From the NCBI GenBank assembly GCA_027053355.1, contig JALUDX010000059.1:1-51903 (forward strand): a stretch of DNA of 51,903 bases. Direction: 5' to 3'. Every line of letters begins with the position of its first letter. Positions within the stretch are counted from its first letter, which is position 1. This DNA is from Anaerolineales bacterium. Its GTDB lineage: Bacteria > Chloroflexota > Anaerolineae > Anaerolineales > DRMV01. Made by a program: the position numbers and the translations under genes. This document shows, in pieces, positions 1,262-50,970 of the stretch. A model generated the notes under the pieces. That model had not been told where the DNA came from. It saw only the letters and a list, made by a program, of their open reading frames with translations, and made no database searches.

Positions 1262-1423
1262 GTAACTTTCAGGGCGGGCAGACAGAAAGGGGAAGCGGGA
1301 TGCGTGAGGCGGGGCGCCTCCCTTGCTTGACGCCCTTAGCGCCACTTTGCGTCCAAAAATCAGCATCTATCCGCCATCATCCGCGTTCATCCGTGGGCTG
1401 TTTTCCAAAGACTGAACAGTTAC
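1262..1423. repeat. Intergenic element with inverted termini (family copy A)
   Basis: Begins GTAACTTTCAG and ends ATCCGCGTTCATCCGTGGGCTGTTTTCCAAAGACTGAACAGTTAC, matching the ends of the copies at 20221, 41382 and 49111. Confidence 0.75.
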
Positions 1424-1450
1424 TGTTGCGGGGGGATGGGGGAATTCCCC

Positions 1451-3202
1451 TCACATGTTCAACGCCACCAAATTCTCGCTTTGCAGCGCCCAGAGGTGGC
1501 TGTAAAGGCCGCCGCGGGCCAGCAGGTCGGCGTGGATGCCGCGCTCGGCCACTTCCCCCTTGTAGAGCACCACGATTTCGTCCATCGCTTCCAGCCCCAC
1601 CAGGCTGTGCGTGACCCACAACACGCTGCGGCCGCGAGTGGTTTCCAGCAGGGTGTCCACCAACGCCCGCTCGGTAATCGCGTCCAGGTTGGCGGTCGGC
1701 TCATCAAGGAGCAAAATCGGCGCGTCGCGCAGCAGGGCACGGGCTAAGGCCAGGCGCTGGCGCTGCCCGCCGCTGAGTTGCAAGCCCTGGCCGCCCAAGT
1801 CGGTGTCGTAGCCCTGGGGCAGGGTGCGCAGCCAGTCGGCGAGGCGCACGGCTTCCATCACCGCGTCTAAGCGGGCTTCGTCCGCCTCGGGCGCGGCCAG
1901 GAGCAGGTTTTCCCGCAGGGTGCCGCTGAAAATGAAGGGCTTTTGCCGCACCACCGCGAAGCGGCTGCGGGCTTCGTCGGGTAGCAGTGCCCGCAGGTCG
2001 CGGCCGCCCAAGGTGATGCGCCCTTCGTTGTATTCCCAAAAGCGCAGCAGCAGGGCGATGAGGGTGGATTTCCCCGCGCCGCTGGGGCCCACCACCGCCA
2101 CCCGCTTGCCTTCGGGCAGGTCGAGGGAAACCTGCCGCAGCGCGGGCGGCTCGTCGGGGGCGTAGCGGAAGGTGAGGGCTTCCACCCGCAGGTCGTTGTC
2201 CGCGGGCAGCGCCGCGGGTTGGGCAGGCGGCTTCACGGCGGGCTCGGCGTCCACCAGTTCGAAGAGGCGGCGGGCGGCGGCGAGGTTACTTTCCAGGAAG
2301 GCGGCCGCGGTGGGCAGGCCAAAGGCGGCCTCGTAACCGCTGAGGGCGACCAGCACCAACGCCACCCAGGTCACGCCGCCCAGCGCGCCCGCCCGCACCA
2401 ACGGCACGCCCAGCAGCAGCACGCCCAACATCCCCAGGCCGGAGAACAAAATCTGCAGCGCCTGCTCCGCGCCTTCCAGCGAGGCCATTTGGGCCTGCGC
2501 GGTGAGGATTTCCTCGCCTAAACGCAGGGCCAGGCGGCGCTGAGCCTCGGCGTAGTTGTAAGCCAGGGCGTCGGCCAGCCCCTGCACATGGTCGACCAGC
2601 GCGGCGTTGAGGGCGGCCCGGCGGGAAACCAGCGCCTGCCCGGCGCGGCGGGCGCGCAGCCGAGCCCACACGGGCACCGCTACCGCGGCCAGCAGGAAGA
2701 AAACCAGCCACGCCAACCCCAAGCGGGGGGCAAAGGCCGCCAAGAAGCCGGTCAGCAGCACCGCGGTGAGGGTGGCGACCCACGGCGGCGCGAGCACCCG
2801 CACGAAGAAGTTTTCCAGGGTGCGGATGTCGGCGATGATGCGCGCCAGCAGGTCGCCGCTGCGGTAACGCTGCAGGCGGGCCGGCGCGAGGGGTTCCAGC
2901 GCGGCGTAGAACCACACCCGCAGGCGGGTGAGCACCCGAAAGGTGGTGTCGTGGGAAACCAGCCGCTCGCCATAGCGGAACGCACCGCGGGCGATGCCGA
3001 AGAAGCGCACGCCCACGATGGCCACGTTCAGGTCGCCAATGGGCGGATGCAGCGCGGCCTTGGCAATGATCCACGCGCCGGTGCCTAACAAGCCCACGCT
3101 GCTCAACACCGTGGCCGTGCCCAACAGCACCGCGGCGAGCACCATCTTCCAGAAGGGTGTCACCATGCGCAGCAGGCGGCGGAAGACAGCCCAGTTGGTC
3201 AT
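1451..3202 (-). CDS. cydC: Thiol reductant ABC exporter subunit CydC
   Basis: Start MTNWAVFRRLL at 3202. VGVRFFGIARGAFRYGERLVSHD is a CydC signature; Walker A GPSGAGKST, LSGGQRQR, LLLDEPT. Confidence 0.9.
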   Translation of the reverse strand: MTNWAVFRRLLRMVTPFWKMVLAAVLLGTATVLSSVGLLGTGAWIIAKAALHPPIGDLNVAIVGVRFFGIARGAFRYGERLVSHDTTFRVLTRLRVWFYAALEPLAPARLQRYRSGDLLARIIADIRTLENFFVRVLAPPWVATLTAVLLTGFLAAFAPRLGLAWLVFFLLAAVAVPVWARLRARRAGQALVSRRAALNAALVDHVQGLADALAYNYAEAQRRLALRLGEEILTAQAQMASLEGAEQALQILFSGLGMLGVLLLGVPLVRAGALGGVTWVALVLVALSGYEAAFGLPTAAAFLESNLAAARRLFELVDAEPAVKPPAQPAALPADNDLRVEALTFRYAPDEPPALRQVSLDLPEGKRVAVVGPSGAGKSTLIALLLRFWEYNEGRITLGGRDLRALLPDEARSRFAVVRQKPFIFSGTLRENLLLAAPEADEARLDAVMEAVRLADWLRTLPQGYDTDLGGQGLQLSGGQRQRLALARALLRDAPILLLDEPTANLDAITERALVDTLLETTRGRSVLWVTHSLVGLEAMDEIVVLYKGEVAERGIHADLLARGGLYSHLWALQSENLVALNM

Positions 3203-3798
3203 GCGCGCCTCTCCTCGCGGTCGAGCCACAATTCGCGGTACTGCCGCTGCCAATCCTGAGCAAAGCGGAAGACCAGGAAGGGCGCGACCCCGGCCACCAC
3301 GGCCAGGGGCGCGCCGGTCAGCCCCAAGGCCAAGAAGAGCGCCCAGCCAGTGGCTGCGGCCAGGGCGTTGGCCCGGGCGGTGTGGCGCAGCGTGAGCACC
3401 CAGGCAATCAGCCAGCCTACGGCCAGCAGCGCGCCTACGGGGGAAACCGCCAGCAGCGCGCCGAACGTGGTGGCGTTCCCCATGCCGCCGCGGAAATCGG
3501 CGAACACCGGCCAGATGTGCCCGACCACCGCGGCGGCCGCGGTCAGCGCGAGCACCCACGCGCCCGCGCCGGCTTCCTGCGCCAACGCCACCGCGACATA
3601 GCCCTTGAGCGCGTCGAGCGTTAGCACCGCCGCGCCCCAGCCCCAGCCCAGGTGGCGCATGGTGTTGGTCGCGCCCGCGTGCCCCGAACCGCCATGGCGG
3701 ACGTCGATGCCCGCCACGCAACGGGGCAGCCAGACGGCAAAGGCCAGCGAACCCAGCAGATAGCCCACCACGGGGAAAATCCAGTGCCAGAGGGTCAT
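3199..3798 (-). CDS. PlsY-family (glycerol-3-phosphate acyltransferase-like) membrane protein, atypical motifs
   Basis: GYLLGS, D.R..GSG..GATN..R, LD.LKG and GHIWPVF..F.GG.G.AT match PlsY architecture. ATGA overlaps with both neighbours. Confidence 0.8.
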   Translation of the reverse strand: MTLWHWIFPVVGYLLGSLAFAVWLPRCVAGIDVRHGGSGHAGATNTMRHLGWGWGAAVLTLDALKGYVAVALAQEAGAGAWVLALTAAAAVVGHIWPVFADFRGGMGNATTFGALLAVSPVGALLAVGWLIAWVLTLRHTARANALAAATGWALFLALGLTGAPLAVVAGVAPFLVFRFAQDWQRQYRELWLDREERRA

Positions 3799-5525
3799 GC
3801 CGCTGCCTCCCGCGCCTGCAGCAGCCGCCGGAACAGGCCTTCCTGCGCGGCTAAGGCGTCGGGCGCGCCGACCTGCACGAGGCGCCCGTTTTCCAGCACC
3901 GCCACTTTGTCGGCATGGGTGACGGTTTGCAGCCGGTGGGCGATGATGAGGGCGGTGCGCCGCGCCAGCAGGGCTTGCAGGCCCTCTTGAATGGCGGCTT
4001 CGTGTTCGGGGTCGAGGCTGGCGGTGGGCTCGTCGAGGATGAGGAAGGGCGCGTTCTTCAGCAGCGCCCGCGCGAGGGCAATGCGTTGCGCCTGCCCGCC
4101 GCTCAGCCGCGCACCCTGCTCGCCCACCACGGTTTCGTAGCCTTCGGGCAGGGCACGGATGAACGCATCGGCGCGGGCGATTTTCGCCGCCCGCACCACT
4201 TCTTCACGGGAGGCGTCGGGGCGGGCCAGGCGGATGTTGGCTTCCACCGTGGTGTTGAACAAATAGGGCTGCTGGGGCACCCACGCCACGCTCTGCCGCC
4301 ACACCGCGGGCGGAATTTCGGCAAGGCGGTGTTCGCCGGCCCAGATTTCGCCGCGCTGGGGCACGATGAAGCGCAGCAGCAGCCCCGCGAGGGTGCTCTT
4401 GCCCGCGCCGCTGGGGCCGACCAAGGCCACCTGCGTGCCTTCTTCCAGGGTGAGGGAAACATCCTGCAGCGCGGGCGCGCTGGCATCGGGATAGGTGAAG
4501 GTAACGCGTTCCAGCCGCAGGGGGAAGGGATGCGCCACCGCGCGCCCGCGGCCCGTGCCCGCGGGCACCTGGGGCGGCTGTTCCAGCACCGCGAAGATGC
4601 GCTCGGCCGCGGCCACGCCGCCCATGCCCGCGTGGAAGCGCGCCCCCAATTGCCGCAGCGGGAAGTAGAATTCCGGCGTCAGCAGCAGCACGAAAAATGC
4701 CTGCTCAAAGGCCAGCCGGCCGTAAAGCAGCCGCAAGCCGATGCCCACGCTGACCACCGCGGTACTCAGGGTGCCCACCCATTCCAGCACCAGCGCGGAA
4801 ATGAAGGCAATGCGCAGCACTTCCAAGGTGGTTGCGCGGAAGCGGTCGCTGACTTCCTCCACCCGGCGGATGTATTCACGGCTGCGCCCCAAAATTTTCA
4901 GCGCGGTCAGCCCTTGCAGCGCGTCGAGCAGGAAGGCGCTCATCCGCTCCAGTTGCTGCCACTGCTTTTTGGTCAGGCTCTCGGCAATGCTGCCGATCAG
5001 GTTCATGAACAGGGGGATGAGGGGGGCGGTGAACAGCAAAATCAGCCCGGAAATCCAATCTCGGGGGAAGACCAGCACCAGCACCAGCAAAGGCACGGCC
5101 GCGGCCAGCACCACCTGGGGCAGGTAGTGGCGGAAGTAGGTTTCCAGTTCTTCCAGGCCCTCGGTGAGGGTGTTGGTGAGTTCGCCGGTGCGCTCGCCAT
5201 GGGTGTAGAGCGGGCCTAACGCCTCTAAGTGCGTGAGCAGGCGGGCGCGCAGGGTGCGCTTGACCGCCGCGGCCACCCGGAAGGCGCTCACTTCCGCCCC
5301 CCAGGCGGCGAGGGCGCGGGCGAGGAGCACGGCGACAAAGGCCACGGCCGCGCCGCGGATGGTCGCCAGGTCGCCGCCTTGCAGGAACACAGCATCGACC
5401 ATGGCGGCGGCCAGCGCGGCCTGGGCGACGATGAGCAGGCCGCCCAACACCCCCAGCGCCACGGTCACGATAAAGGCGCCGCGGGGGCCGCGGAGCAGGG
5501 CTAAAAGTCGTCGGTCGAGGTTCAT
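3795..5525 (-). CDS. cydD: Thiol reductant ABC exporter subunit CydD
   Basis: YF.HYLPQ, TAPLIPLFM.LIG, VLRIAF.SALVLE and PEFYFPLRQLGARFHA are CydD motifs; ABC ATPase domain follows. Confidence 0.92.
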   Translation of the reverse strand: MNLDRRLLALLRGPRGAFIVTVALGVLGGLLIVAQAALAAAMVDAVFLQGGDLATIRGAAVAFVAVLLARALAAWGAEVSAFRVAAAVKRTLRARLLTHLEALGPLYTHGERTGELTNTLTEGLEELETYFRHYLPQVVLAAAVPLLVLVLVFPRDWISGLILLFTAPLIPLFMNLIGSIAESLTKKQWQQLERMSAFLLDALQGLTALKILGRSREYIRRVEEVSDRFRATTLEVLRIAFISALVLEWVGTLSTAVVSVGIGLRLLYGRLAFEQAFFVLLLTPEFYFPLRQLGARFHAGMGGVAAAERIFAVLEQPPQVPAGTGRGRAVAHPFPLRLERVTFTYPDASAPALQDVSLTLEEGTQVALVGPSGAGKSTLAGLLLRFIVPQRGEIWAGEHRLAEIPPAVWRQSVAWVPQQPYLFNTTVEANIRLARPDASREEVVRAAKIARADAFIRALPEGYETVVGEQGARLSGGQAQRIALARALLKNAPFLILDEPTASLDPEHEAAIQEGLQALLARRTALIIAHRLQTVTHADKVAVLENGRLVQVGAPDALAAQEGLFRRLLQAREAAA

Positions 5526-5718
5526 AAGGCGTGGTCAGGGGGAAAGGGGCTTGCCCGCAGGCCGGGCTGCTGGCCCGAAACAAGGGGGCGTCTGCTGGCA
5601 GGCTAATTATACCGGCAGCAGCCTTTTCTGTGGGAGGCAGGCTGCAGTAGAAGTCGATCGGCCTTTCCCCAGAACGCGGTGAGGCCGCGAGGCGGGCGAT
5701 ATAATTGTCACTGCAAGT

Positions 5719-6618
5719 TTGCGCCGGAGGTGCGCCATAAGCAAGGCGAACAAGGTTTGCGCTTTTCGCTGGCCGCTGTGGGGGTGGGCTGGCCTGGCGC
5801 TGGTGGGCGTTTTTTGGCCGGTCAACTGGTTTTGGCCAGGGCTGCGCACCCATTGGGCTTTTTTCCCTTTATGGCTGGGCTACGCGCTCACGGTGGACGC
5901 GCTGACCTATTGCCGTCAGGGCGCATCGCTGGCCTCTCGCTCGCCGTGGCGGTACGCGGCGCTGTTCGTGCTTTCCGCGCCTGGGTGGTGGCTTTTCGAG
6001 GCGCTCGACACCCGCACGCAAAACTGGTATTACGTCGGGCGTTCGTTTTTCAGTGATACCCAATACGCGCTGTGGGCCAGCCTGAGTTTTTCGACGGTGA
6101 TGCCCGCGGTGTTCGGCACAGCCCAGTGGGTGCGCACCTGGCCGTGGTTTCGTCGCCCGCACCGCGGCCCGCGAATCCGCCCCTCTCGCGGCTTGCTGCT
6201 CGCCTTTTTCGGCAGCGGCTGGGCCATGCTGGCATTGTTGTGGGCGTGGCCGCGCTATGGCTTCCCCTTTTTATGGCTGGCGTTGTATTTCATTTTGGAG
6301 CCGCTGAACGCCTGGTTGAAGTTCCCCACCCTCTTGCGCTGGACCAAAGAGGGCAACTGGCAGCCGATCTACACCCTGTGGGCCGCGGTGTGGCTCACCG
6401 CGTTTTTCTGGGAGATGTGGAATTTCTTTTCTTACCCCAAGTGGGTGTATCACGTGCCTTTTGTGGATTGTTGCCACGTTTTCGAGATGCCGCTGTTGGG
6501 CTATGGCGGCTATTTGCCCTTTGCCCTGGAACTTTTCGCGCTGTATCACCTGCTGGCCGGGCTGTTGCGCCTCGACCGGGGGGAGTATCTGGCGCCGGCG
6601 TTGGTTTCGGAGGAGTGA
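5719..6618 (+). CDS. Multi-pass membrane hypothetical protein (Trp-rich)
   Basis: 299-aa hydrophobic ORF with internally repeated WWLFE..D..TQNWYY / FFWEMWN....KW.Y motifs and FEMPLLGYGGYLPF. Start codon uncertain. Confidence 0.75.
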   Translation: MRRRCAISKANKVCAFRWPLWGWAGLALVGVFWPVNWFWPGLRTHWAFFPLWLGYALTVDALTYCRQGASLASRSPWRYAALFVLSAPGWWLFEALDTRTQNWYYVGRSFFSDTQYALWASLSFSTVMPAVFGTAQWVRTWPWFRRPHRGPRIRPSRGLLLAFFGSGWAMLALLWAWPRYGFPFLWLALYFILEPLNAWLKFPTLLRWTKEGNWQPIYTLWAAVWLTAFFWEMWNFFSYPKWVYHVPFVDCCHVFEMPLLGYGGYLPFALELFALYHLLAGLLRLDRGEYLAPALVSEE

Positions 6619-6629
6619 CCCGCGCCGGT

Positions 6630-7044
6630 GGAACTGTTCAGCCTTGGAGGAAACCACAGATTACGCAGATTACGCAGATTTCGCAGAGAGACATCCACAG
6701 AGATTTCATGGGTTGGCACAGATGGGGTAAAAAAACACCCCAAAGCGCCACGTTTCCCTTCGTTTCTTGGCGCCCTTTGGGGTCGTCTTGGCGACCTGGT
6801 ATGATTGGCGTTACCATCCACCGATTGACACAGATTTACACCGATTGGGTGAAAAACACAGAAGACACAGAAAACCCGCAGAAAACACAGAAATTTTCTC
6901 TCTGCGTCTTTGGGCGAGGCATCGCCTCGCCCCTACGCTGCGTCTTTGCGTTCCTCTTTGGCGACCTCGGCGTCCTCTTGGCGCCCTTGGCGACTCAAAA
7001 ATCCGTGCTATCCGCGGTCTCTTCCCTCGTGGCTGAACGGTTAA
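6630..7044. repeat. Large composite intergenic element (family copy B)
   Basis: GGAACTGTTCAGCC...GGCTGAACGGTTAA termini. Internal modules: ACGCAGATT x2-3, ACACAGAA(G/A) arrays, TTGGCGAC(C/T) arrays and a GGGCGAGGCATCGCCTCGCCCCTAC hairpin. Confidence 0.8.
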
Positions 7045-7052
7045 GCCCCGGT

Positions 7053-17295: not shown

Positions 17296-17487
17296 GTAAC
17301 CGTTCAACCGCGGGGAAGAGAAACCGCAGATTACGCCGGTTTCACAGATGAGCACAGATTGGGCGAAAAACACTAAAAAGCCCTCTCTCTCGCCCTCACT
17401 TCTTGGCGGTCTTGGCGTCATCTTGGCGACCTTGGCGACCTAAAAATCAGTGCTATCCGTGGTCTATTCCCTTGGGTGAATAGTTAC
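17296..17487. repeat. Intergenic element with inverted termini (family copy C)
   Basis: GTAACCGTTCAACC...GGGTGAATAGTTAC; internal CACAGAT modules and (CTTGGCGNN) x4. Confidence 0.8.
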
Positions 17488-19965: not shown

Positions 19966-20221
19966 GTAACATTCAAGCCGCCGTTCACCCTCAAGAGACA
20001 CTGCGGAACTGCGGATGACGTAGACAGAAAACCACAGAAGCCACAGAGAAGGCACCGAGAACACAGAAGGCGGGAGGGGTTGGGGTAGTAAATGGCGCTT
20101 GGTTACTTGGTGCTTGGTTACTCAGGCGCCTCACCCGGTGCCCTCGGCGCCCTAAAATCCGCGTCCATCCACCAACATCCGCGTTCATCCGTGGGCTGTT
20201 TCCCAAAGGCTGAACAGTTAC
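19966..20221. repeat. Composite intergenic element (family copy D), inverted homolog of 49111-49380
   Basis: Same module order as the reverse complement of 49111-49380: GACAGAAAACCACAGAAG..., TTGGTTAC arrays, CTCAGGCGC, CCCTCGGYGCCC, ATCCGCGTTCATCCGTGGGC...GGCTGAACAGTTAC. Confidence 0.85.
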
Positions 20222-20398
20222 ACATTCAAGTCGCCGTTCACCCTTGGGAAAATGGCTGCGAATGCCGCGAGAACGCATTGCGCGTTGAGGGAACGCCGAG
20301 AAAGCAAAAGCGCAGGGCGAGGCGTGCCCCGCCTTGCGCTTTACAACTTTTTGTGTTTTCCCGTTTGTGTATTTCCCCTTGCTGAGGCGAATAGATAG
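20222..20398. repeat. Degenerate second element in tandem with copy D
   Basis: Starts ACATTCAAGTCGCCGTTCACCCTTGGGAAAATGG, ends GAGGCGAATAGATAG, and contains a GCGCAGGGCGAGGCGTGCCCCGCCTTGCGC hairpin. Confidence 0.55.
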
Positions 20399-20399: not shown

Positions 20400-21257
20400 T
20401 CAGGCGGCCAAATCAAGCGGCAAATCACTGATGTCGCGCAGGCGCTGCCCCGAAATCATGGTTTCCAGCAAGCCTTGGGCTGTCTCATCCCCTGCTGCTG
20501 CAACCGCCTGCTGCAGTTCGGGCAGAGCGACGTGATACACACAATCCAGGTCGCCTGTGCCCAACGCAAGGGAAGCCAGCCTGCCGGGATGCGGCTCGGC
20601 AGTGACAACCACAATGTGCGGTGTATGCCCTTTCCGGTTGCGGATGAGGTTCAGCCCTTCCGTGCGCACGTTTTGCGAACGGTCGCTGCGGATAGTCCAC
20701 TTGCAGGAAATGCTGGCGTGCAAGAGCGGCACGTGGTTGTTCACACGACGCAATGGTGAAAGGCCGGCGATAACGCGCCCTTCAACGAGATTCTCTCCCC
20801 GATTGATCGCTTTATCAGGAAGCGGCTCACGCGCCACAATGATGTCGGGGGCAATGAGGTAATCCCCCAATGCCGCCCGCAGCGCCGGATGCGCGTGTAA
20901 CGCCTCAGTCAGGTCGGCCAAATGGCGGTATTGGGCGAAATCCTGAATGTGCGCATTGAGGTAAAAACGCCAATCGCCGGGGCGAAGGTGTTGCAGCAAG
21001 CCAAAGGCTTTCTCAAGGTAACGGCGGGTAGCGGCCTCAAAGGATTTCCCCACCTGTTGCGGTTTACGTTCCTTGTGCGGCAAGCGACAACCGGCAACCT
21101 CGGCGATTTGTTCCCACATCAAGCGCGCCACTTCACGGCTGGTTTTGTTGCTCTTGTCGGCATTGTTGGGATAGCCCGCCGAGGAAAGCCAAACCACCTC
21201 ATCGCAAAGCGCACGGTGATAACGCCGCCGCAGGTTTTGCCACACCGTGAGCGTCAC
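20400..21257 (-). CDS. NgoMIV-family type II restriction endonuclease
   Basis: PNNADKSN.TS, G..FE, PGDW, DY.I.PDI.V.R, LHASISCKWTIRSDRSQN.R.E.LNLIRNRKG..PHIVVVTAEP, RLRDISDLPLDLA. Confidence 0.9.
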   Translation of the reverse strand: MTLTVWQNLRRRYHRALCDEVVWLSSAGYPNNADKSNKTSREVARLMWEQIAEVAGCRLPHKERKPQQVGKSFEAATRRYLEKAFGLLQHLRPGDWRFYLNAHIQDFAQYRHLADLTEALHAHPALRAALGDYLIAPDIIVAREPLPDKAINRGENLVEGRVIAGLSPLRRVNNHVPLLHASISCKWTIRSDRSQNVRTEGLNLIRNRKGHTPHIVVVTAEPHPGRLASLALGTGDLDCVYHVALPELQQAVAAAGDETAQGLLETMISGQRLRDISDLPLDLAA

Positions 21258-22591
21258 GACGCATCTCCCTCTTTGAGAAAGCCGAGGACGTACTCCGAGT
21301 GCATCCGCTTTTCGATGGCTGAGCCAATGCCGCCGCGCCGCGTCGGCATCATCCGGCGGTCGCGGTCCAACTGACGCTCGCCAATGCCCACACAGCGCAG
21401 CCCTACCTGCTCGCCAATGGCAGCCAAACTTTGGGGCACCCGGGCCGGCACGCCGCGCATCGTGCTCTCGCCCACGACCAACACGGCAACGCCTTCGGGC
21501 ACAAGCACCCGGCGCATTTCGTTCAGTACCCGGCGCATTTCAGAGAAATACCGGTGAAGCACTTTGCCCTTTCTGGCATCCACCGCGGCGACTTCACCCA
21601 CAGCCTGCATGGCTGCAGGCGGCAGGGCTTCCATTTCAAAGCCCTGCAACGCCTCGCCGCCGATGTATTCCTTCCGCAAAGCGCCCAATGCCCGAATGCT
21701 ATAGCCCCACCAAATCAGCGAAAACTTGTGCGCCCGCATGTAGTCAATGGCGTTGGCAGCATAGGGCGGCGATGTCACAATGAGGTGGACGCTGTTCGCA
21801 TTAAAGGGAAGGCGCTGGGCATCGGCCTCGCTCAACCAGGGGAACACCGACGGGCGGGGCGGCATCTGAGCCAACAGGCGTAAAGCCCGCCGTGCTTTTG
21901 CACGGAAGGCTTCCACTGCCGAGCGGGGTGCTTTTTCCACTTTATGGGGGCGGGTGTGGGAAAGGTCGCGTGCCTGAGCAACACTCCCCGATTTGGCAAT
22001 GATGGTGCTGGAAAACACCACCCGCAAGAAAGGCTGCACGGCAGGCGGGCTTTCCTCAATGGCCGCGCTCAAAGCAAGCAATTCCTGCTGGGTTTGGGGC
22101 AAAAACCAGTAATCGGCAAAGGCACGGGTGGGGTCGTCCAGGCGGGCTTCCCGCAAAACGGCAAGGGATCGAGGATTTTCCAGCATTTGCCGGGCGCAGG
22201 TGAGCACGGCATGGAAAGCCGATTCAAGCAATGCGGGGGCAGGCGGGGTGGCTTTGGCCGCCACTAACCGCAGTGCCAAGGGGTCAATGTCGGTGCCCAA
22301 CGCCACACGCCCCAGCCGGTGGGCTTCCAAAATCGTGGTGCCGGAACCCATCATGGGGTCAAGCACACGGTCGCCGGGCTCGGTCAGGTGGCGGATGAAA
22401 AGCCGTGGTAACGCCGGCGGAAATTTTGCTGGGAAGGGATGGAGCGCGTGCAGCGGGTCTTCCCCCTTTTGGCCGTGGAAGTTCAGGTCGCCTTCCAGTA
22501 GCAAGCGGAGTTTAGCCGCCTGCGAAGGGGCGGCCACCACTTCGGGGCGCAGTTGAGGTTGAGGCAAGGTGTATTCCAGCGGCAGTTGCAT
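21254..22591 (-). CDS. Amino-DNA methyltransferase (SPPY, probable N4-methylcytosine)
   Basis: HPFPAKFPP, motif I DPMMGSGT, then a large variable region, then motif IV VTSPPY. Overlaps the nuclease start (GTGA). Confidence 0.85.
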   Translation of the reverse strand: MQLPLEYTLPQPQLRPEVVAAPSQAAKLRLLLEGDLNFHGQKGEDPLHALHPFPAKFPPALPRLFIRHLTEPGDRVLDPMMGSGTTILEAHRLGRVALGTDIDPLALRLVAAKATPPAPALLESAFHAVLTCARQMLENPRSLAVLREARLDDPTRAFADYWFLPQTQQELLALSAAIEESPPAVQPFLRVVFSSTIIAKSGSVAQARDLSHTRPHKVEKAPRSAVEAFRAKARRALRLLAQMPPRPSVFPWLSEADAQRLPFNANSVHLIVTSPPYAANAIDYMRAHKFSLIWWGYSIRALGALRKEYIGGEALQGFEMEALPPAAMQAVGEVAAVDARKGKVLHRYFSEMRRVLNEMRRVLVPEGVAVLVVGESTMRGVPARVPQSLAAIGEQVGLRCVGIGERQLDRDRRMMPTRRGGIGSAIEKRMHSEYVLGFLKEGDAS

Positions 22592-26164: not shown

Positions 26165-26280
26165 GTCTATTCAGCCACAAGGAAATCGACCACGGAGGAC
26201 ACGGACAACCACAGATACGCACGGCTTTTCAAGTCGCCAAGAGAGGCAACCAAGCAACCAAGTAACCAGGTCACCAAGCC
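26165..26280. repeat. Half-element with 8-bp CAACCAAG array (copy G)
   Basis: CTATTCAGCC...CCACGGAGGACACGGA...GTCGCCAAGAGAGGCAACCAAGCAACCAAGTAACCAGGTCACCAAG. Confidence 0.65.
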
Positions 26281-26295: not shown

Positions 26296-27807
26296 ATGCC
26301 CTTGCCCACGCCCAACTTCCGCCGCCTGCAGTGGAAACTCACCCTTTCGTACACCTTAGTGACCACCGCGGCCATCTTGCTCATCGAACTGGCCGCCCTG
26401 GTTTTTGCCGCCATACTCATGCAGCGAGCGCCTCTGCTACCCACGCTGATCGTCTCTTCCCTCAAAAGCGGCGCTTCACCGCTGGCCGACGCCTTGGCCG
26501 CCCAGCCCCCCGACCAGCAGAGAGCCGAGCGATGGCTGGCCGAGTTCGTGCGCTACGGCACCCTGACCACCAACCACGGCAGCCTGAAAATGCACATCGA
26601 CCCCGCGAGCATCACCCAGGCCGTGGTGGTCGACGCCCAAGCGCACGTGGTGGCCGCCTACCCACCGGCCGCGTGCGGGGCCAGCCTGGCCGCGTGCCTG
26701 CCTGCGGAAGGGGAGCACCTGCTGGCGCGCGCCCTGGCCGGAGAAAGCACCCCCGACCGCCTGGCCGAGCAAACCGAGCACGGCTTCCTCATGGCCGTGC
26801 CCATCACCCAGCCCACCAGCGGCAAAGTGGTAGGCGCCTTGTTTTTGCGGGTGACCCTGCCCTTCACCTGGGCGCAGGCGCCCAAAGTGTTCCTGCTGCC
26901 GGTGGCGCGCAGCGCGTTGGTCATTCTGCTCATCGCGGCCGTCATCGGCACCGTGTTTGGCTTCCTCACCGCCCGCAGCCTCACCCACCGGCTCAAGCGG
27001 CTGGCCACAGCCGCAGACGCATGGAGCCAGGGCGACTTCAGCGTGTTGGCCCGCGACACTTCCCAAGACGAAATCGGCGACCTAGCCCGGCGCCTCAACC
27101 AAATGGCCTCCCAACTGGAAAACCTGCTCCACACCCGGCAAGAACTGGCCGCGGTCGAAGAACGCAACCGCCTGGCGCGCGAACTGCACGACGCGGTCAA
27201 ACAACAGGTCTTCGCCGCGGGGATGCAAATCGCGGCCGCACGGCGTCATCTCCCCGCGCACCCTGAGCAGGCCCAGCAGGCCCTGGCGCAAGCGCAGCGC
27301 CTCACCCAACTAGCCCAGCAGGAACTCACCGCGCTGATCCGGGAACTGCGGCCTGCCGCGTTGAAAGACCAGGGGCTGGCCGCCGCGCTGCGCGACGCCC
27401 TCCACCGCTGGCAAGAACAGACCGGCATCCAGGCCACCCTGCACCTGCAGGGCGAGCGCCGCCTTCCCTTGGCCGTGGAGCAGACCCTCTTCCGCATTGC
27501 TCAAGAGGCGTTGAGCAACGCGGCCAAACACAGCCAGAGCACCCACGTCACCCTGCGGGTGGTCTGGGCCGCCGACCACGTGACACTCATCGTGGAAGAC
27601 AACGGCCAGGGCTTCGACCCCGCGCGCGCCCGCGGGCGCGGGCTGGGGCTTTCGAGCATGGCCGAACGCGCGGCCGAACTGGGCGGCCACGTGCACATCC
27701 ACAGCGCGCCCGGCCAGGGCACCCGCATCGAAGCCCGCCTTCCCCTTCCCCCGCCTGCAGGGGCCAAAAGCCACCCTGAGCCAGGGGATCGTTCGGCCTT
27801 GGGGTAG
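26296..27807 (+). CDS. HAMP-domain sensor histidine kinase (HisKA_3)
   Basis: Two TM segments, HAMP (DEIGDLA..LNQMA), EERNRLARELHDAVKQ, QEALSNAAKHS, DNGQGF, GLGLSSM.ER. Confidence 0.92.
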   Translation: MPLPTPNFRRLQWKLTLSYTLVTTAAILLIELAALVFAAILMQRAPLLPTLIVSSLKSGASPLADALAAQPPDQQRAERWLAEFVRYGTLTTNHGSLKMHIDPASITQAVVVDAQAHVVAAYPPAACGASLAACLPAEGEHLLARALAGESTPDRLAEQTEHGFLMAVPITQPTSGKVVGALFLRVTLPFTWAQAPKVFLLPVARSALVILLIAAVIGTVFGFLTARSLTHRLKRLATAADAWSQGDFSVLARDTSQDEIGDLARRLNQMASQLENLLHTRQELAAVEERNRLARELHDAVKQQVFAAGMQIAAARRHLPAHPEQAQQALAQAQRLTQLAQQELTALIRELRPAALKDQGLAAALRDALHRWQEQTGIQATLHLQGERRLPLAVEQTLFRIAQEALSNAAKHSQSTHVTLRVVWAADHVTLIVEDNGQGFDPARARGRGLGLSSMAERAAELGGHVHIHSAPGQGTRIEARLPLPPPAGAKSHPEPGDRSALG

Positions 27808-27923
27808 GCCGCGGATGAACGCGGGGACGAATGCAAATTACGAGTTGCGAATTAGGCCGTAGATTTTGGAGATGCCAAGGTCGCCAAGAGAGGCAACTAA
27901 GCAACCAGGTAACCAAGTCACCA
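27808..27923. repeat. Element remnant between kinase and regulator (copy H)
   Basis: CCGCGGATGAACGCGG...GTCGCCAAGAGAGGCAACTAAGCAACCAGGTAACCAAGTCACCA, near-identical to 26233-26277. Confidence 0.65.
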
Positions 27924-34131: not shown

Positions 34132-34132
34132 T

Positions 34133-39984: not shown

Positions 39985-41352
39985 TTAGAAGTTGACCTCG
40001 GGTAGGTTGCGCAACGAACGCTGGATGGCCTCTTCAGGGTAGGCGTAGTCTTCCAATTCGCCCGCTAGGTAAGCCTCATAAGCGCTAAGGTCGAAATGGC
40101 CGTGGCCAGAGAAGTTGAACACGATAACCCGTTTCTCGCCGGCTTCTTTGGCCTTGAGCGCCTCGTCGATGGCGACCCTCACCGCGTGGGCGGTTTCCGG
40201 CGCGGGGATGATGCCCTGGGTGCGGGCGAAGAGCACCGCGGCCTCGAACACCGCGCGCTGATGCACGGCGACGGCCTCAATCACGCCCTGGTCGTACAGC
40301 GCGCACACCGTGGGCGCCATGCCGTGGTACCGCAGCCCGCCCGCGTGGATGGGCGCGGGCACGAAGTCGTGCCCCAAAGTGTGCATCTTGACGATGGGGG
40401 TGATTTTGCCCGTGTCGCCGTAGTCGTAGGCATACAGCCCTTTGGTAAGGGTGGGCGCAGCTGTGGGCTCCACGGCAATGACGCGGTAGTCCTTCTTTCC
40501 CTGCAATTTAGCCTGCAGGAAGGGGAAAGCAAAGCCGCCAAAATTGGAGCCGCCGCCGATGCAGCCGATGAGCACGTCGGGCGCTTCGCCGGCGAGTTCC
40601 ATCTGCTTCATGGTCTCCTGGCCGATGACGGTTTGGTGCAGCAGCACATGGTTGAGCACCGAGCCGAGGCTGTATTTTTTCTTACCGTTGGAAGTGAGCG
40701 CGGCCTCCACGGCCTCGGAAATAGCGATGCCCAGCGAGCCGGGGCTGTTGGGGTCTTCGGCCAAAATGCGGCGGCCGATTTCGGTGCGGTCGGTGGGGCT
40801 GGCGAACACCTGCGCGCCGTAGGTTTCCATCAAAATGCGGCGGTAGGGTTTTTGCTGATAAGAGACCTTGACCATGTACACTTCGACGTCGATGTCGAAG
40901 AAGTTGCCTGCCAGCGCCAGGGCCGAGCCCCACTGCCCCGCGCCGGTTTCGGTGGTCAGCGCGTGCACGCCCTCGGCCTTGTTGTAAAACGCCTGAGCCA
41001 CCGCGGTGTTGGGCTTGTGACTGCCCGAAGGCGAAACCCCTTCATATTTGAAGTAAATGTGCGCGGGCGTCTCCAACGCATGCTCCAGCCGGCGGGCGCG
41101 GATCAGCGGCGTAGGCCGCCACAGCCGATACACCTCCCGCACCGGCTCCGGGATTTCGATGTAGCGCTCGCTGCTCACCTCTTGAGCAATGACCGCCTGG
41201 GGGAAAATGGCCGCTAAGAAATCGGGCGTCACCGGCTCTTTGGTGACGGGGTGTAGCGGCGGCGGCAACGGCGTGGGCAAGTCGGCCGCGATGTTGTACC
41301 AAAACTTGGGCAGGTCGGCTTCGGAAAGCAAAAAACGATATTGGTCAGACAT
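39985..41352 (-). CDS. trpB2: TrpB2 (TrpB-like PLP enzyme, stand-alone tryptophan synthase beta)
   Basis: Start MSDQYRF (GGAGG RBS); [74 protein letters not shown]. Confidence 0.93.
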
Positions 41353-41381: not shown

Positions 41382-41450
41382 GTAACCGTTCAGCCTTGGG
41401 AAAATAGGCCACGGATGAACGCGGATAATTACGGATCGCCGCGGATTTGA
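41382..41450. repeat. Half-element (copy I) in trpB2 leader
   Basis: GTAACCGTTCAGCCTTGGGAAAATAGGCCACGGATGAACGCGGATAATTACGGATCGCCGCGGATTT, matching 49111 onward. Confidence 0.75.
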
Positions 41451-41544
41451 GAGCGTCGTAGGGCGGGATGCCAATACAGCGCAGCCCAAGGGAGGCGAGA
41501 CAGTGTGCCGCCAACAAACGCGCGCAACGCAAAGCGCGCTTAAC

Positions 41545-41885
41545 GCAAAACGCGCCCGTCCCGCTCAGGGACGAACGCGTCGAAGGCGTCCGCGGTGCCA
41601 CCCCGGTTAGGCTGGCCGCGGGTTTAAAACAAAAAAACCCGCCGTGAAGCGACGGGAAAATCCGCAAGCCACTGGCAAGCCAGCCTCACTCTTTTCGGGT
41701 ACGGCGCTGCTGCGCTTATACCCTTTGCCTCGATAACGGTGGCAACTCCGGCAAGGGCTACTGCCTGAGGGTTCGCCCTGCGGCTCCGAGGCCCATTCAG
41801 CGTCGGCGTGCGGGCCGGCTCTCACCTTCCCCGGCTCTCTGTGCCGTCGTTTCGGCGCTTACTCGTCCTCTTCATCGCCTTTGCG
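41545..41885 (-). promoter_or_regulatory. T-box riboswitch (Trp specifier) upstream of trpB2
   Basis: GCGATGAAGAGGACGAGTA start, AGAGA and GGTGAGAG motifs, GAA-TGG specifier (41793-41798), CCGTTA, AAGAG, T-box GGTGGCACCGCG (41591-41602), terminator hairpin plus T-run. Confidence 0.9.
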
Positions 41886-42174: not shown

Positions 42175-42341
42175 GGCACTGCTAAAGGCCGCGGCTGACA
42201 CCGTTTCCCCATTTAGACAAAAAGAGTAACTACCTACCCTGCGCCGAAAACGAGGTTGACAAGCAATATTCCAATAACTCTGCCATGCCATGAAACAACA
42301 TTACACCTTACTCGCCCTCACCACTCCCCCAGAGCCGCCTC

Positions 42342-42391
42342 CCTTCGACTTCGCTCAGGGCGGCCTTCGACTTCGCTCAGGGCGGCCTTCG
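42342..42391. repeat. 22-bp tandem repeat x2.3
   Basis: CCTTCGACTTCGCTCAGGGCGG twice, then CCTTCG. Confidence 0.8.
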
Positions 42392-42445
42392 CGTCGTCGT
42401 GGCGACCCTAACGAATAGCCCCGGGCTTCGTGGTAAACTTGCCCC

Positions 42446-43429: not shown

Positions 43430-43796
43430 AGCGCGGCGTAGCCGCTCCGTTTTGAGGAAATAGAACACGGATGGCAACTGCCTGTCTGTTGGGCTGGGGG
43501 CAGCGTTATAACCTTCGCTGCGTGGCGTGGGCAGAAGTCCACCTGCGTGGGTGTTTCCCTTTGCAGCCGTGGCTTTGGTCGTCGAGGGCTAACGGCAGCA
43601 GTCGAAACTGTGTTTGCCCTTCGCCAAACCCTCTCGCGGCAATTTCTGCCACCAGCCGGCAACGGATGCACGCCGCGCGACAATGAGTAGGTGTCAATTA
43701 TCACTTCCCGCCCCACGTATTGTTGCCTACAATAAAAAGTGCTGGCAAGACGCTGTTTGGCACCAGACAGACCCCAAGGCCAACAAGGAGGCTCAG

Positions 43797-45324: not shown

Positions 45325-45352
45325 TACGCCTTGCCGGCTTTACCTTAACCTT

Positions 45353-45386
45353 CGCCGCGGACGCGCTGTGCGCCCGCGGCGTTTTT
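45353..45386 (+). terminator. Intrinsic terminator after fumarase
   Basis: CGCCGCGG...CCGCGGCG followed by TTTTT. Confidence 0.65.
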
Positions 45387-45461
45387 GCCTCGGTGCTATA
45401 ATTCCCTCTGCCTGTTTAAACCCCGCCCAGCGCAAGCCGTTTCCCTTTCCGGAGAAAGGCC

Positions 45462-47293: not shown

Positions 47294-47302
47294 ACCGTTG
47301 CC

Positions 47303-49102: not shown

Positions 49103-49110
49103 CCGCTGCC

Positions 49111-49380
49111 GTAACTGTTCAGCCTTGGGAAAATAGCCCACGGACGAACGCGGGGATGATGGCGGATAGCCGCGGATTTTTGGGCACCGAGGGCACCAGG
49201 AGAAGCGCCTGAGTAACCAACCACCAAGCAACCAAGCAACCAAGCAACCAGGTAACCAGGCAACCAACCCCCATTTACCCCAATCCCTCAGTACCTCAAC
49301 CCCTCTCGCTTTCTGTGTTTTCAATGCCTTCTCTGTGTCTTCTGTGGTTTTCTGTCGGCGACATCTTGTTGAGCAGTTAC
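49111..49380. repeat. Composite intergenic element (family copy E)
   Basis: GTAACTGTTCAGCC...GTTGAGCAGTTAC termini; internal (CAACCAAG)n and (TTCTGTG)n arrays; inverted homolog of 19966-20221. Confidence 0.85.
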
Positions 49381-49985
49381 CCTCGGCCTAAGGCGCGCAG
49401 CAAGGTGAGCACCATGCGCGCGGTCGCGCCCCAGATGACTTCCCCCTGATAGGGTTGGAAAAAGACGGCCTGCACCGGCGGCAGGTGCGGCAAGACCACG
49501 CGCGGCCGGGTTTGCCGATGCGCGGGGTCGGCCAGCCAGGCCAAGGGCACGGTAAACACCCGCGCCACTTCGGCCGGTGAAGGGTTTAGGGCCAGGGGCT
49601 GGGGCAGCAGCGCGACCACCGGCGCCACCCAAAAATTGCTGGCGGTACGGTGGAGCGGCAGGCTGCCCAACACGGTAACCTGTTCTGCCGGCAGGCCCAG
49701 TTCCTCTTCTGTTTCGCGCAGCGCAGTGTGGACGAGGGAAGGGTCGTCGGGTTCGGCCTGCCCGCCGGGGAAAGACACTTCCCCGCTGTGGGGGTCGTGG
49801 TCGTTGACGGTGCGGCGGATGAACAGCAGGTGCCAGCCCTCGGGTTGAGGCAACAACGGCAGCAGCACCCCCGCGTGGCGCAGCCGGCCGGGCAGGTGCT
49901 CTTCGGGGTAAGGGTTCACCGCCTGAGGGGGAAAGGCCTCCAGGCGGCGGCGGATTTCTTCGGGTGTAAGTTGCGTTGGGTTCAT
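49377..49985 (-). CDS. Nudix CoA pyrophosphatase (NudL/Nudt7-like)
   Basis: AGVLLPL, R......HSGEVSFPGG, TALRETEEELG, V.P.V, EVA.VF.VPL, IWGATA. Confidence 0.9.
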   Translation of the reverse strand: MNPTQLTPEEIRRRLEAFPPQAVNPYPEEHLPGRLRHAGVLLPLLPQPEGWHLLFIRRTVNDHDPHSGEVSFPGGQAEPDDPSLVHTALRETEEELGLPAEQVTVLGSLPLHRTASNFWVAPVVALLPQPLALNPSPAEVARVFTVPLAWLADPAHRQTRPRVVLPHLPPVQAVFFQPYQGEVIWGATARMVLTLLRALGRG

Positions 49986-50821
49986 GGCTGAGACGAAGGG
50001 GGGACGGCAGTTTCCTGTTCCGCAGGTGGAGGCGCGGGCACCACTGGCCGGGCGAAAATCAGGTAGCCGGTGTGCGCGACCATGCGGTCGGTGGGGCGTA
50101 GCCGTTCGGGGACGGGTTTGTAGTAGCGGAGCAGCACTTCGCACACCTCGATGAACGCGAAGTGGTGCTCTTGCAGCGCGACCACCAGCCGGGAGACCTG
50201 GTTGGTGGTGGGTACCAGGCTGCCGAAAAAGCCGCCGGTTTTGAGCGCGGCCCGCGCCTGCGCGATGTAATCTTCGGGGTTGGGGACATCTAAAAACAGC
50301 GCGTCGACGTCGGTTTCGTCGAAGCCCAAGGCAATGTCGCGCAGTTTGAAGGTGACCCGGTCGTCGAGCCCGACCCGGCGGAGGTTTTTTCGAGCCAGGC
50401 GTTGCATTTCGCCGCGGCGCTCGTAAGAAATCACCCGCCCCTGGGGCCCCACGGCAAAGGCCAACGCGGTGGTCAGTGCGCCCGAGCCCGTGCCCGCCTC
50501 TAACACCGTCTGGCCGGGGCCGATGCTCAGCGAAACCAACACGAAACCGATGTCTTTGGGGAACATGATCTGCGTGTTGCGCCGGGTTTCTTTGAGTAGG
50601 TCGGCCAGCGAGGGGCGCAGCAGGTAAAACGACGCGCCCAAATGCGAATACACCTGGCTGCCCCACGGCAGGCCGATGAGGTCGTTGTGCTGGATGACGC
50701 CTTTGTGGGTGTGCAGCACGGCGTCTGGGGTCAGCCGCACCAAGAAAAAGCGGTGGCTGGTGCTCAGCAGTTGCACCAGATCGCCTGGCCGGGCATGGGT
50801 GTGGTAGAGAGGGAGGGTCAT
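49982..50821 (-). CDS. trmI: tRNA (adenine58-N1)-methyltransferase
   Basis: TH.G...H..LIG..WG, RP, R.TQI..PKD, VLEAGTGSG.LT, SYERR, FLD.P.P, RP..RM..HTGYL. Confidence 0.9.
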   Translation of the reverse strand: MTLPLYHTHARPGDLVQLLSTSHRFFLVRLTPDAVLHTHKGVIQHNDLIGLPWGSQVYSHLGASFYLLRPSLADLLKETRRNTQIMFPKDIGFVLVSLSIGPGQTVLEAGTGSGALTTALAFAVGPQGRVISYERRGEMQRLARKNLRRVGLDDRVTFKLRDIALGFDETDVDALFLDVPNPEDYIAQARAALKTGGFFGSLVPTTNQVSRLVVALQEHHFAFIEVCEVLLRYYKPVPERLRPTDRMVAHTGYLIFARPVVPAPPPAEQETAVPPSSQP

Positions 50822-50829
50822 GGGAGGAG

Positions 50830-50970
50830 GGAGGATGGTTGGATGGTTACCTGGTTGGTTGGTTGGCTGGTTGGTTGGATGGTTGGATGGTTGGTTGCCT
50901 CGCTTGGCGGCCTCGGCGTTCCGAAATCCGCGGGCATCTGTGGCGCTTCGCGCCATCCGCGGCCGATTTT
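50830..50970. repeat. Element remnant with (GGTT/GGAT)n array upstream of trmI (copy J)
   Basis: GGATGGTTGGATGGTTACCTGGTTGGTTGG...GGTTGCCTCGCTTGGCGGC...AAATCCGCGG. Confidence 0.7.

Follow-up and report, generated by a model that had tools for sequence, protein, structure and literature searches.

The repeated intergenic elements of the window (the whole stretch of 51,903 nucleotides that was analysed) are non-coding, non-autonomous MITEs. They most probably form a single family moved in trans by a single-ORF DDE transposase of the IS66 family (ISBst12 group), with a body that represents a gene-less cassette shell captured by IS66-type ends. The original prediction had proposed non-coding, non-autonomous mobile elements, as found here, but regarded them as an undescribed system with no established mechanism. 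That view is not supported, since their termini and 8-bp target duplications match those of transposase-bearing IS66-family (ISBst12-group) insertion sequences (IS) of other genomes. As a transposon family the elements are ordinary biology, and the unusual part is the body. In the literature we could cover, from which subscription journals were mostly missing, neither the arrays nor MITEs of this kind were found to be described.

Abundance and genomic context

The genome searched is a 2.45-Mb Anaerolineales MAG of 215 contigs. The terminal 14-mer GTAACTGTTCAGCC occurs in it 512 times at up to two mismatches, against 7 occurrences in a reversed-genome control, a frequency well beyond chance; GTAACYRTTCAR occurs 126 + 119 times. 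Family sequence makes up about 3.2% of the genome and, by crude gene calls, about one-fifth of its intergenic DNA. These calls derive from a codon-usage model and are approximate (1935 calls, 82% coding); 104 of 111 copies lie outside them. Strictly paired copies measure 164-516 bp, with a mode of 206. Allowing five mismatches, a partner terminus was found at 114 of 240 unpaired ends, compared with 665 of 2000 random windows, so that matches at this tolerance carry no information.

Family copies in the window

Each complete copy is described by its two ends: the G-end bears CRCGGAT arrays and the A-end CRCAGAW arrays. The window was scanned by BLAST with library copies of 150-320 bp, and at least three library hits were required. 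All ten intergenic loci listed as sharing sequence hold family sequence (Table 1), and the fragment proposed near position 43438 was not recovered at that threshold, the resemblance there extending over only about 25 bp. As stated originally, the window lacks a transposase: none of its 42 gene calls has a Pfam match to a transposase family. No Rfam family covers the elements when the whole window is searched at gathering thresholds.

Table 1. MITE copies and fragments in the window
Feature	Position	Strand	BLAST-recovered span	Structure
Older MITE copy	1262..1423	-	1331-1423	Right end intact, G-type, ...TCCGCGTTCATCCGTGGGCTGTTTTCCAAAGACTGAACAGTTAC; left terminus decayed to GTAACTTTCAGG
Compound 415-bp copy	6630..7044	-	6632-7043	A-type end left (CACAGATT/CGCAGATT array), G-type end right
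Complete 192-bp copy, youngest subfamily (ends G6/A8)	17296..17487	-	17296-17487	
256-bp copy	19966..20221	-	19983-20264	Atypical left terminus GTAACATTCAAGCC..., CACAGAA array, CTTGGTTAC units
Partial copy abutting 19966..20221	20222..20398	.		ACATTCAAGNCGCCGTTCACCCT stretch repeated, then decayed G-type arm
Truncated G-end half	26165..26280	+	26167-26268	Degenerate terminus CTATTCAGCC, then CACGGA units, CGCCAAG and CAACCAAG arrays
Second truncated G-end half	27791..27923	+	27791-27916	CGCCAAG/CAACCAAG tail as in 26165..26280
G-end half	41382..41534	+	41382-41534	Terminus of perfect type, GTAACCGTTCAGCC
270-bp copy	49111..49380	+	49111-49366	Perfect left terminus, G-type arm, CAACCAAG array, TTCTGTG array, decayed right terminus
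Fragment without terminus	50841..50979	-	50841-50979	CTTGGTTG-type array, CTTGGCG units, reversed G-type arm

The sole window copy with a recognisable target duplication is the compound one at 6630, flanked by GCGCCGGT and GCCCCGGT (7/8 match) and holding a second, partial element in its interior; at the older copy at 1262 the duplication is no longer present. The right terminus of the copy at 19966 is perfect and lies on the G-type end. Truncated copies include those at 26165, 27791, 41382 and 50841. The first of these ends 15 bp upstream of the start codon of a histidine kinase; the opening bases of the second are the final codons and stop of the histidine kinase gene, with a response-regulator gene downstream. 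The half copy at 41382 separates a minus-strand T-box leader (41564-41884) from the start codon of the PLP-enzyme gene under T-box control.

Target duplication and insertion sites

Across the genome, the 8-bp flanks of 136 paired copies were compared: the target duplication is perfect in 49 and shows no more than two mismatches in 89. Shifted flanks and perfect 9-bp flanks, taken as controls, each gave 0/136. The target inferred from 77 insertions is symmetric: T has a frequency of 0.45 at position -2 and 0.42 at -1, and A one of 0.40 at +1 and 0.47 at +2, while G is depleted at -1 (0.08) and C at +1 (0.06). The duplications themselves are diverse, comprising 76 different 8-mers in 77. The suggestion that the elements are nested holds: 12 of the 77 duplication-bearing insertions lie inside array sequence, and a second MITE family interrupts some copies.

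IS66-type ends and the search for a transposase

According to PMC12898284, the IS66-family element ISDge4, of the ISBst12 group, terminates in GTGACTACTCAGCA and GTAACTGCTCAGCA and duplicates 8 bp of its target, and the MITE terminus agrees with its published end at 12 of 14 positions. Agreement is likewise 12/14 with GTAACTGCTCAGGC, the consensus of Chloroflexota IS relatives, and reaches 14/14 between a MITE variant and GTAACTATTCAGCC, present at both ends of a full IS from an Anaerolineae MAG (L094). A genome of the same order contains a 1571-bp IS with ends GTAACTACTCAGCC, whose 495-aa ORF matches DUF6444, zf-IS66 and DDE_Tnp_IS66. A 14-bp inverted pair of the GTAAC type (GTGAC in one case) accompanies 50 of 80 relatives of this transposase, and 21 of those 50 IS have identical 8-bp flanks. 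Relatives of the matching IS are common in Chloroflexota. From these sequence comparisons we infer that an IS66-type enzyme moved the copies studied here. Recognition by such a transposase would be limited to the 14-bp terminal inverted repeat GTAACYRTTCAGCC, and its 8-bp staggered cuts would fall at WW-N8-WW targets.

In the assembly itself, PF03050 has no matches, and none of four IS66-type transposases used as tblastn queries found a hit better than E = 0.99; no IS66 transposase was found in the genomes G003 and G004 of the genus, although both are rich in copies. Multi-copy IS are frequently lost in the assembly of fragmented MAGs, and because this assembly consists of 215 contigs, absence of the transposase from the genome is not proven. 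Three other candidates were set aside. The classic three-ORF IS66 element of the sister genome G001 has its left end cut by the contig, and G001 has no MITE termini; the transposase contig of genome G016 is AT-rich, without termini, and not informative; and the single Y1_Tnp ORF (C101), considered as a Y1/HUH mobiliser, is adjoined only by a 32-bp end fragment and is not enclosed.

Distribution and age of the copies

Three species of the genus have 186, 135 and 81 termini, G005 has 5, and another five have none. In the sister species G003, G004 and G005 empty orthologous sites occur, a between-species polymorphism of presence and absence that had been sought as a sign of mobility. The site of the 192-bp copy at 17296 is empty in all three. 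The junction of the compound copy at 6630 is occupied by a MITE in G004 as well, whereas G003 and G005 lack one there; the site of the half copy at 41382 is empty in G005, occupied by a different MITE fragment in G004 and, in G003, by an 8-mer array. Strains 96-97% identical are represented by assembled contigs in three other metagenome runs, and these contigs extend into the MITEs at 17296/17487 and 7044. None of the 15 contig joints listed (113 more exist) precisely skips a MITE, and contigs break at repeats. Among the contigs listed, none joins across an empty site, so these assemblies give no indication that the family is moving in the population at present. The copies are old: compared in pairs they are on average 71-86% identical, and only the youngest subfamily reaches a median nearest-neighbour identity of 0.94.

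Arrays, layout and folding of the body

The internal structure departs in several respects from the one originally described, in which a sub-terminal arm was followed by interchangeable cassettes with periods of 8-9 bp. The arm CCACGGATGAACGCGGA is present but confined to the G-end, the other end carrying CRCAGAW arrays. One G-end and one A-end are combined in 83 of 115 paired copies, the other 32 having an untyped end, and two ends of the same kind occur in 0/115. The copies fall into a few subfamilies with this strict layout instead of exchanging cassettes freely. Modules are gained and lost as envisaged: array length changes in unit steps, as between the 197-bp and 206-bp copies, which differ by one CGCAGATTA unit, and end types occur in several combinations. 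Units of the G-arm are spaced by 10 bp 164 times and by 9 bp 37 times; the A-arm shows 135 spacings of 9 bp, 34 of 10, 16 of 11 and 48 of 14. Periods are thus mostly 9-11 bp, and 8 bp is rare. The arrays start about 14 nt inward of both termini.

Under the preferred explanation, the body of 160-270 bp would not come from the parent IS, a view supported by the array-free ends of autonomous IS and by MITEs with the same ends but a plain hairpin body, both described below. It is a long imperfect hairpin with arms made of arrays of ~10-bp units, one arm of the CRCGGAT type and the other its near-complement, ATCTGYG or TTCTGTG, and with further arrays (CGCCAAG, CAACCAAG and GCGGGAT) in the loop. 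A gene-less cassette shell would have become enclosed by IS66-type ends and then amplified, and the variation among copies would reflect several old subfamilies, slippage of array units, insertion of one MITE into another, and truncation.

The body folds as a long hairpin on both strands, with mean z of -4.15 and -2.89 against shuffles, and in 84 of 111 copies folding is stronger for the strand that begins with the G-end (-37.6 vs -34.9 kcal/mol per 100 nt). Such asymmetry might be expected if the elements were kept for a strand-specific RNA hairpin, serving as an RNase III substrate or as a signal for mRNA stabilisation or processing like the rRNA intervening sequences; the arrays would then be under selection as RNA, and transposition would be only the means of spread. 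Pairing of the CGGAT arm with the ATCTG arm makes use of G.U pairs kept in 13-17 of 18 aligned copies, in which A-to-G changes in the 5' arm preserve pairing; mismatches compatible with U.G exceed C.A (214 vs 131), and the arms of gene-bearing cassettes in sister species differ in sequence yet stay complementary. However, the G/A excess is partly circular, because the same motifs were used to orient the copies, and the pairing statistics are overstated because copies share descent. Changes on both sides affect only 3 of 34 consensus pairs, with a covariation term of -0.69, and orientation to neighbouring genes is unbiased, with 47 sense and 45 antisense copies at 3' ends and 60 and 58 at 5' ends. 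We therefore regard retention for an RNA hairpin as unlikely.

The same layout might be viewed as that of working transposon parts, the arrays being phased sub-terminal binding sites of the transposase, ~10 bp apart and different at the two ends. Tn7, Mu and Ac/Ds have sub-terminal transposase binding sites that differ at the two ends. Array periods of 9-11 bp are near the helical repeat of DNA, all 83 fully typed pairs combine one G-end with one A-end, and the distance of the arrays from the termini is alike at both ends. What makes such a role quite improbable is that comparable elements lack the arrays: eight inspected autonomous IS66-type elements have none at their ends, including one with identical termini, and a Thermoflexales MAG contains ~115-bp MITEs with the same termini and a plain hairpin body. 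The same arrays, moreover, flank GxxExxY and four-helix-bundle genes that lack such termini. That the arrays are scars of repeated insertion and excision, stacking 8-bp target duplications in tandem, is extremely improbable given the measured periods; although the duplication length, the 8-9 bp periods first reported and the insertions that land in arrays would suit it, the units are family-specific motifs whereas the duplications are diverse, and similar gene-flanking arrays exist where such MITEs are few or absent.

Relationship to GxxExxY and four-helix-bundle cassettes

The link to GxxExxY and four-helix-bundle genes, which the original prediction had mentioned for other bacteria, is real in this genome and genus. 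Here a single four-helix-bundle gene and 4-5 genes of the GxxExxY type stand between inverted arrays of the MITE units, and the cassette arms match MITE modules at about 87-100% over 15-40 bp. G005, with just five termini, has a GxxExxY gene with CGCAGATT arms. Since the MITE arrays are the cassette arm sequences of the genus, the body is read as a gene-less cassette shell, and we infer that its origin ran from cassette arm to MITE. Copies enclosing a GxxExxY, four-helix-bundle or HUH/RAYT ORF had been considered, and none was found between family termini: the GxxExxY and four-helix-bundle genes of this genome, which are the TIGR04256 and TIGR02436 genes at 5-6 places, all lie elsewhere, as do such genes across the nine genus genomes examined. 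A tblastn comparison with the 136 paired elements for residual cassette coding sequence (two valid queries) gave a best E of 0.88, and the CGCCAAG and CAACCAAG arrays do not occur as arms of gene-bearing cassettes in the nine genus genomes.

A further, unlikely reading is that array arms may be a self-standing functional module common to two types of selfish element. Each kind of array would then serve, at the DNA level or as an RNA stem, as the cognate site of one GxxExxY nuclease-like or four-helix-bundle protein whose gene lies elsewhere in the genome, and the several hundred gene-less shells would be non-autonomous partners that also ride on IS66-type ends. If so, the small 'intervening-sequence' proteins would be trans-acting factors with hundreds of genomic targets.

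The family occupies about 3% of a small genome and places MITEs at gene ends and within the leaders of mRNAs, where one copy separates a T-box from its gene. It suggests that IS66-type ends of just 14 bp can capture and amplify unrelated DNA. Because the captured DNA is the arm material of poorly understood cassettes, this lineage supplies hundreds of natural gene-less copies, which offer a handle on whether the arrays serve in protein binding, in RNA processing or in nothing.

Comparison with known systems

REP/RAYT systems consist of short REP hairpins with a Y1 (HUH) transposase and make no target duplication; the MITEs, in contrast, carry an 8-bp duplication, and the lone Y1_Tnp ORF is not enclosed. 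BOX elements have a modular boxA-boxB(n)-boxC structure, and we know of no matching IS or regular target duplication for them. The BOX elements of Streptococcus pneumoniae, mentioned in a review (PMC10969869), resemble the MITEs in being dispersed and intergenic, in having internal modules that vary in number and transcripts that fold, and in inserting into each other, but the MITEs have a clear IS family and a clear duplication.

With ISBst12-group IS, which can mobilise MITEs and are represented by ISDge4 of Deinococcus geothermalis (PMC12898284), the MITEs share a 14-bp repeat of the form GTAACT.(C/T)TCAG.. and the 8-bp duplication. They differ from these IS in having no transposase gene, a body unrelated to the IS interior, hairpin arms built of arrays, and two different ends. 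The closest likeness of the body is to intervening sequences and gene cassettes. The 23S rRNA of Coxiella burnetii has an ORF-bearing intervening sequence with S23p (PMC4990558), and such sequences share with the GxxExxY and four-helix-bundle cassettes and with the MITEs a hairpin of two inverted arms. The likeness extends to the arm units in the TIGR04256 and TIGR02436 gene cassettes of this genome, where the same units stand in short, inverted tandem arrays. Unlike the intervening sequences and the cassettes, the MITEs are gene-less, end in IS66-type termini with 8-bp duplications, and occur in either orientation in hundreds of copies.

Abundance and transposon character of the repeat family

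On inspection of each of the ten listed loci, the sequences are as the original prediction described them, which confirms the observation, and BLAST searches of the window with library copies (family copies of 150-320 bp) recovered all of these loci but not the short fragment near 43438. Assembly G000 (2,450,417 bp in 215 contigs, 62% G+C) contains the window as its contig C59, and the sequencing runs in which the window occurs are hydrothermal-vent metagenomes. The 12-mer GTAACYRTTCAR occurs 126 + 119 times in G000. With up to two mismatches, the 14-mer GTAACTGTTCAGCC is found 512 times, against 7 in a control consisting of G000 reversed without complementing; at exactly three mismatches the counts are 258 and 132. 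Sequence with three or more library hits amounts to 78,572 bp, or 3.2% of G000, in 561 stretches of at least 40 bp, and the family accounts for about 22% of intergenic DNA by crude gene calls; of the 111 typed copies, 104 fall outside the called genes.

Stack pairing of the termini yielded 136 elements and 240 unpaired termini, 23 of which face a contig end within 300 bp; others belong to truncated or interrupted copies. The 8-bp flanks immediately outside the termini are identical in 49 of the 136 elements and differ by at most two mismatches in 89, a level reached by none of the 136 in a shifted control; identical 9-bp flanks were found in none of the 136. The targets rebuilt for 77 insertions display a symmetric preference, T-rich at positions -2/-1 and A-rich at +1/+2, with G at 0.08 at -1 and C at 0.06 at +1. 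In composition the duplicated 8-mer does not stand out (45% A+T versus 43% in intergenic DNA), and 76 different sequences are found among the 77. Strictly paired copies range from 164 to 516 bp, with a mode of 206. The repeat family is a MITE.

Probable parent insertion sequence and transposase

GTAA-type ends combined with an 8-bp duplication are the hallmark of the IS66 family (PMC11946415). ISDge4, a member of the ISBst12 group that transposes in Deinococcus geothermalis, is bounded by GTGACTACTCAGCA and GTAACTGCTCAGCA and makes an 8-bp repeat (PMC12898284). A genome of the same order (G025) contains a 1571-bp element in a 1672-bp contig, with GTAACTACTCAGCC at both ends and a single 495-aa ORF matching DUF6444, zf-IS66 and DDE_Tnp_IS66; in two more of its contigs GTAACCGTTCAGCC lies about 140 bp from the 3' end of an IS66-type transposase gene. 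A transposase-first search of species-representative genomes returned 80 loci, mostly from Chloroflexota MAGs, 50 of which have a GTAAC-type (in one case GTGAC) 14-bp inverted pair spaced 1.5-2.2 kb apart, and 21 of these 50 have identical 8-bp flanks. Ten further terminal pairs reported by the script do not start with GTAA and were regarded as spurious. L094, from an Anaerolineae MAG, has GTAACTATTCAGCC at both ends, identical to the terminus found most often in the youngest MITE subfamily. The original prediction is partly supported: the reading as mobile, non-coding, non-autonomous elements stands, but that of an undescribed system fails by the prediction's own test, a match of the termini to a known insertion sequence with a transposase, which G025, L094 and ISDge4 provide.

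The window was said to hold no transposase, and Pfam scans found none among its 42 gene calls, which comprise ordinary housekeeping genes and one NgoMIV-type restriction-modification pair. A PF03050 profile search gave no match in G000 or in the same-genus genomes G003 and G004, and tblastn of four IS66-type transposases against G000 gave a best E of 0.99; because these are fragmented MAGs, we treat the absence of an IS66 transposase from the three genomes as unproven. The only Y1_Tnp (HUH) ORF in G000 (350 aa, 37.5 bits) is not enclosed by a MITE; its only MITE sequence is a 32-bp end fragment at the 3' end, which supplies the last codons and the stop.

Anatomy of the element body

From each end inward, the elements consist of the 14-bp terminus, a spacer of about 14 nt and an array. 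The 512 termini comprise 187 G-ends (CRCGGAT arrays), 179 A-ends (CRCAGAW arrays), 144 untyped ends and 2 that are too short. Of the 115 paired copies with lengths of 150-330 bp, 83 combine one G-end with one A-end and 32 include one or more untyped ends; no copy carries a G-end or an A-end twice. Units are spaced by 10 bp (164 cases) or 9 bp (37) in G-arms, by 9 (135), 10 (34), 11 (16) or 14 bp (48) in A-arms, and by 9 or 11 in CCAAG arrays, so that the predicted array period of 8-9 bp slightly underestimates the measured spacings, mostly 9-11 bp.

Clustering of the ends resolves a few subfamilies. G2 ends pair with A4 (33), A3 (11) and A8 (4), and A8 ends with G6 (24), G1 (10), G5 (5) and G2 (4): there is some mosaicism, but the ends do not combine freely. 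Pairwise identity within groups averages 0.71-0.86, and in the youngest of them, G6/A8 (206 bp), the median identity to the nearest neighbour is 0.94. A single CGCAGATTA unit separates copies of 197 bp from those of 206 bp, and 12 of the 77 insertions fall in array sequence.

Each element is predicted to fold end to end. In 84 of 111 copies the more stable fold is that of the strand reading from the G-end (-37.6 against -34.9 kcal/mol per 100 nt), and the mean z of this strand against dinucleotide shuffles is -4.15, compared with -2.89 for the opposite strand (28 copies, 25 shuffles each). The asymmetry arises because CGGAT faces ATCTG: the opposed units form G.U pairs on one strand, where the opposite strand has A.C mismatches. 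The excess in the G/A mismatch class (716 versus 246) is partly circular, since the copies were oriented by these same motifs; the independent class, T/C versus C/T, counts 214 versus 131. An alignment of 18 copies contains 34 consensus pairs, 3 of them changed on both sides, with a covariation term of -0.69, and the copies are oriented at random with respect to adjacent genes (47/45 at 3' ends, 60/58 at 5' ends). The hairpin is real, but these results do not demonstrate selection on an RNA form.

Distribution, movement and genomic neighbours

Exact matches to the pattern GTAACYRTTCAGCC number 186 in G000, 135 in G003, 81 in G004 and 5 in G005, also of the same genus; five other same-genus genomes (62-82% complete) have none, and the 31 relatives searched at family and order level have 0-7 each. 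The site at 17296-17487 is a spacer of 25-45 bp in G003, G004 and G005. At 41382, G005 has an empty site, G004 a different MITE fragment and G003 an 8-mer array. At 6630 a MITE is present in G004, in a stretch of 96% identity, and absent from G003 and G005. Contigs from three other runs, with strains 96-97% identical, extend from flanking sequence into the MITEs at 17296/17487 and 7044; these insertions therefore predate that divergence.

The NgoMIV-type pair adjoins tandem MITEs. Its region and window positions 1-6678 are 91-96% identical to G003, G004 or G005, most neighbouring genes being at 69-85%; recent exchange within the genus may have occurred. Two truncated copies that share a CGCCAAG/CAACCAAG tail are placed immediately upstream of the genes for a histidine kinase and its response regulator, respectively, and the second provides the last codons and stop codon of the kinase gene. 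At 41382-41884 of the window, a MITE half separates a T-box leader from the start codon of a PLP-enzyme gene, and should therefore belong to the regulated mRNA leader.

A second MITE family, of about 70 copies genome-wide, has GTAAYTACCTACCC ends (140 in G000 versus 10 in the control), a length of about 230-250 bp and 8-bp duplications. It is IS66-like, lacks arrays, has a promoter-like TTGACA stretch inside, and is often found within first-family copies, splitting some.

Coordinates of features in the window and related genomes
Feature	Sequence	Locus	Position
Second-family MITE copy	window		42226-42395
Truncated copy upstream of kinase gene	window		26165-26280
Truncated copy upstream of regulator gene	window		27791-27923
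NgoMIV-type restriction enzyme and DNA methylase	window		20400-22591
PLP-enzyme gene	window		39985-41352
T-box leader (Rfam RF00230, 96 bits), minus strand	window		41564-41884
Y1_Tnp (HUH) ORF	G000	L164:1355-2407	C101:12355-13407
Small-gene cassette	G000	within L001-L006	C77:41073-41396
Small-gene cassette	G000	within L001-L006	C164:197-538
Small-gene cassette	G000	within L001-L006	C70:412-765
Small-gene cassette	G000	within L001-L006	C5:4431-4763
Small-gene cassette	G000	within L001-L006	C176:2087-2427
Four-helix-bundle gene at pheS-pheT	G006 (same genus)	L118	
Four-helix-bundle gene at pheS-pheT	G004	L123	
Four-helix-bundle gene at pheS-pheT	G005	L120	
Four-helix-bundle gene at pheS-pheT	G000	L001	

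Relation to GxxExxY and four-helix-bundle cassettes

G000 encodes one TIGR02436 four-helix-bundle gene, between pheS and pheT, and four or five TIGR04256 GxxExxY genes, two of them at gatA-gatB. Each lies between inverted arrays (CACAGAA/TTCTGTG, GCGGAT/ATCCGC, GCAGAGG/CTCTGCG or GCGGGAT/ATCCCGC) with the purine-rich arm upstream, and none is enclosed by family termini. The gatA-gatB region was assembled twice (C164:1-700 and C176:2000-2600), with one GxxExxY gene intact and one frameshifted, which probably reflects strain heterogeneity in the MAG.

Between cassette arms and MITE modules, stretches of 15-40 bp are 87-100% identical (97% over 33 bp in one case and 90% over 40 bp in another), and the downstream arm of the C5 cassette holds an inserted MITE with the duplication AACCCAAG. 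G005, with only 5 termini, has at the gatA-gatB junction a GxxExxY gene whose arms are built of CGCAGATT, the A8-end unit. Across the genus, the arm unit differs from one four-helix-bundle gene to the next. The pheS-pheT junction is occupied in four species by four different arm sequences; the units are entirely different and both arms are complementary in each, a pattern that looks like co-variation of the arms across species.

No arrays stand beside the eight autonomous IS ends inspected, and in the genomes examined no gene-bearing cassette corresponds to the CGCCAAG or CAACCAAG arrays. A Thermoflexales MAG (L134, L138, L141) carries MITEs, about 115 bp long, that combine the same 14-bp termini with a plain GC-rich hairpin body; hence IS66-type ends captured different bodies in other Chloroflexota. 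On the simplest reading, whose direction we infer, IS66-type ends would have captured the gene-less shell of a cassette.

The chiefly open-access literature searched on GxxExxY, intervening-sequence proteins, IS66 MITEs and heptamer repeats describes no such elements, and the papers on GxxExxY do not deal with arrays. The family is a MITE of the IS66 (ISBst12-group) type, with an unusual body: an array-built hairpin related to intervening-sequence-type cassettes.
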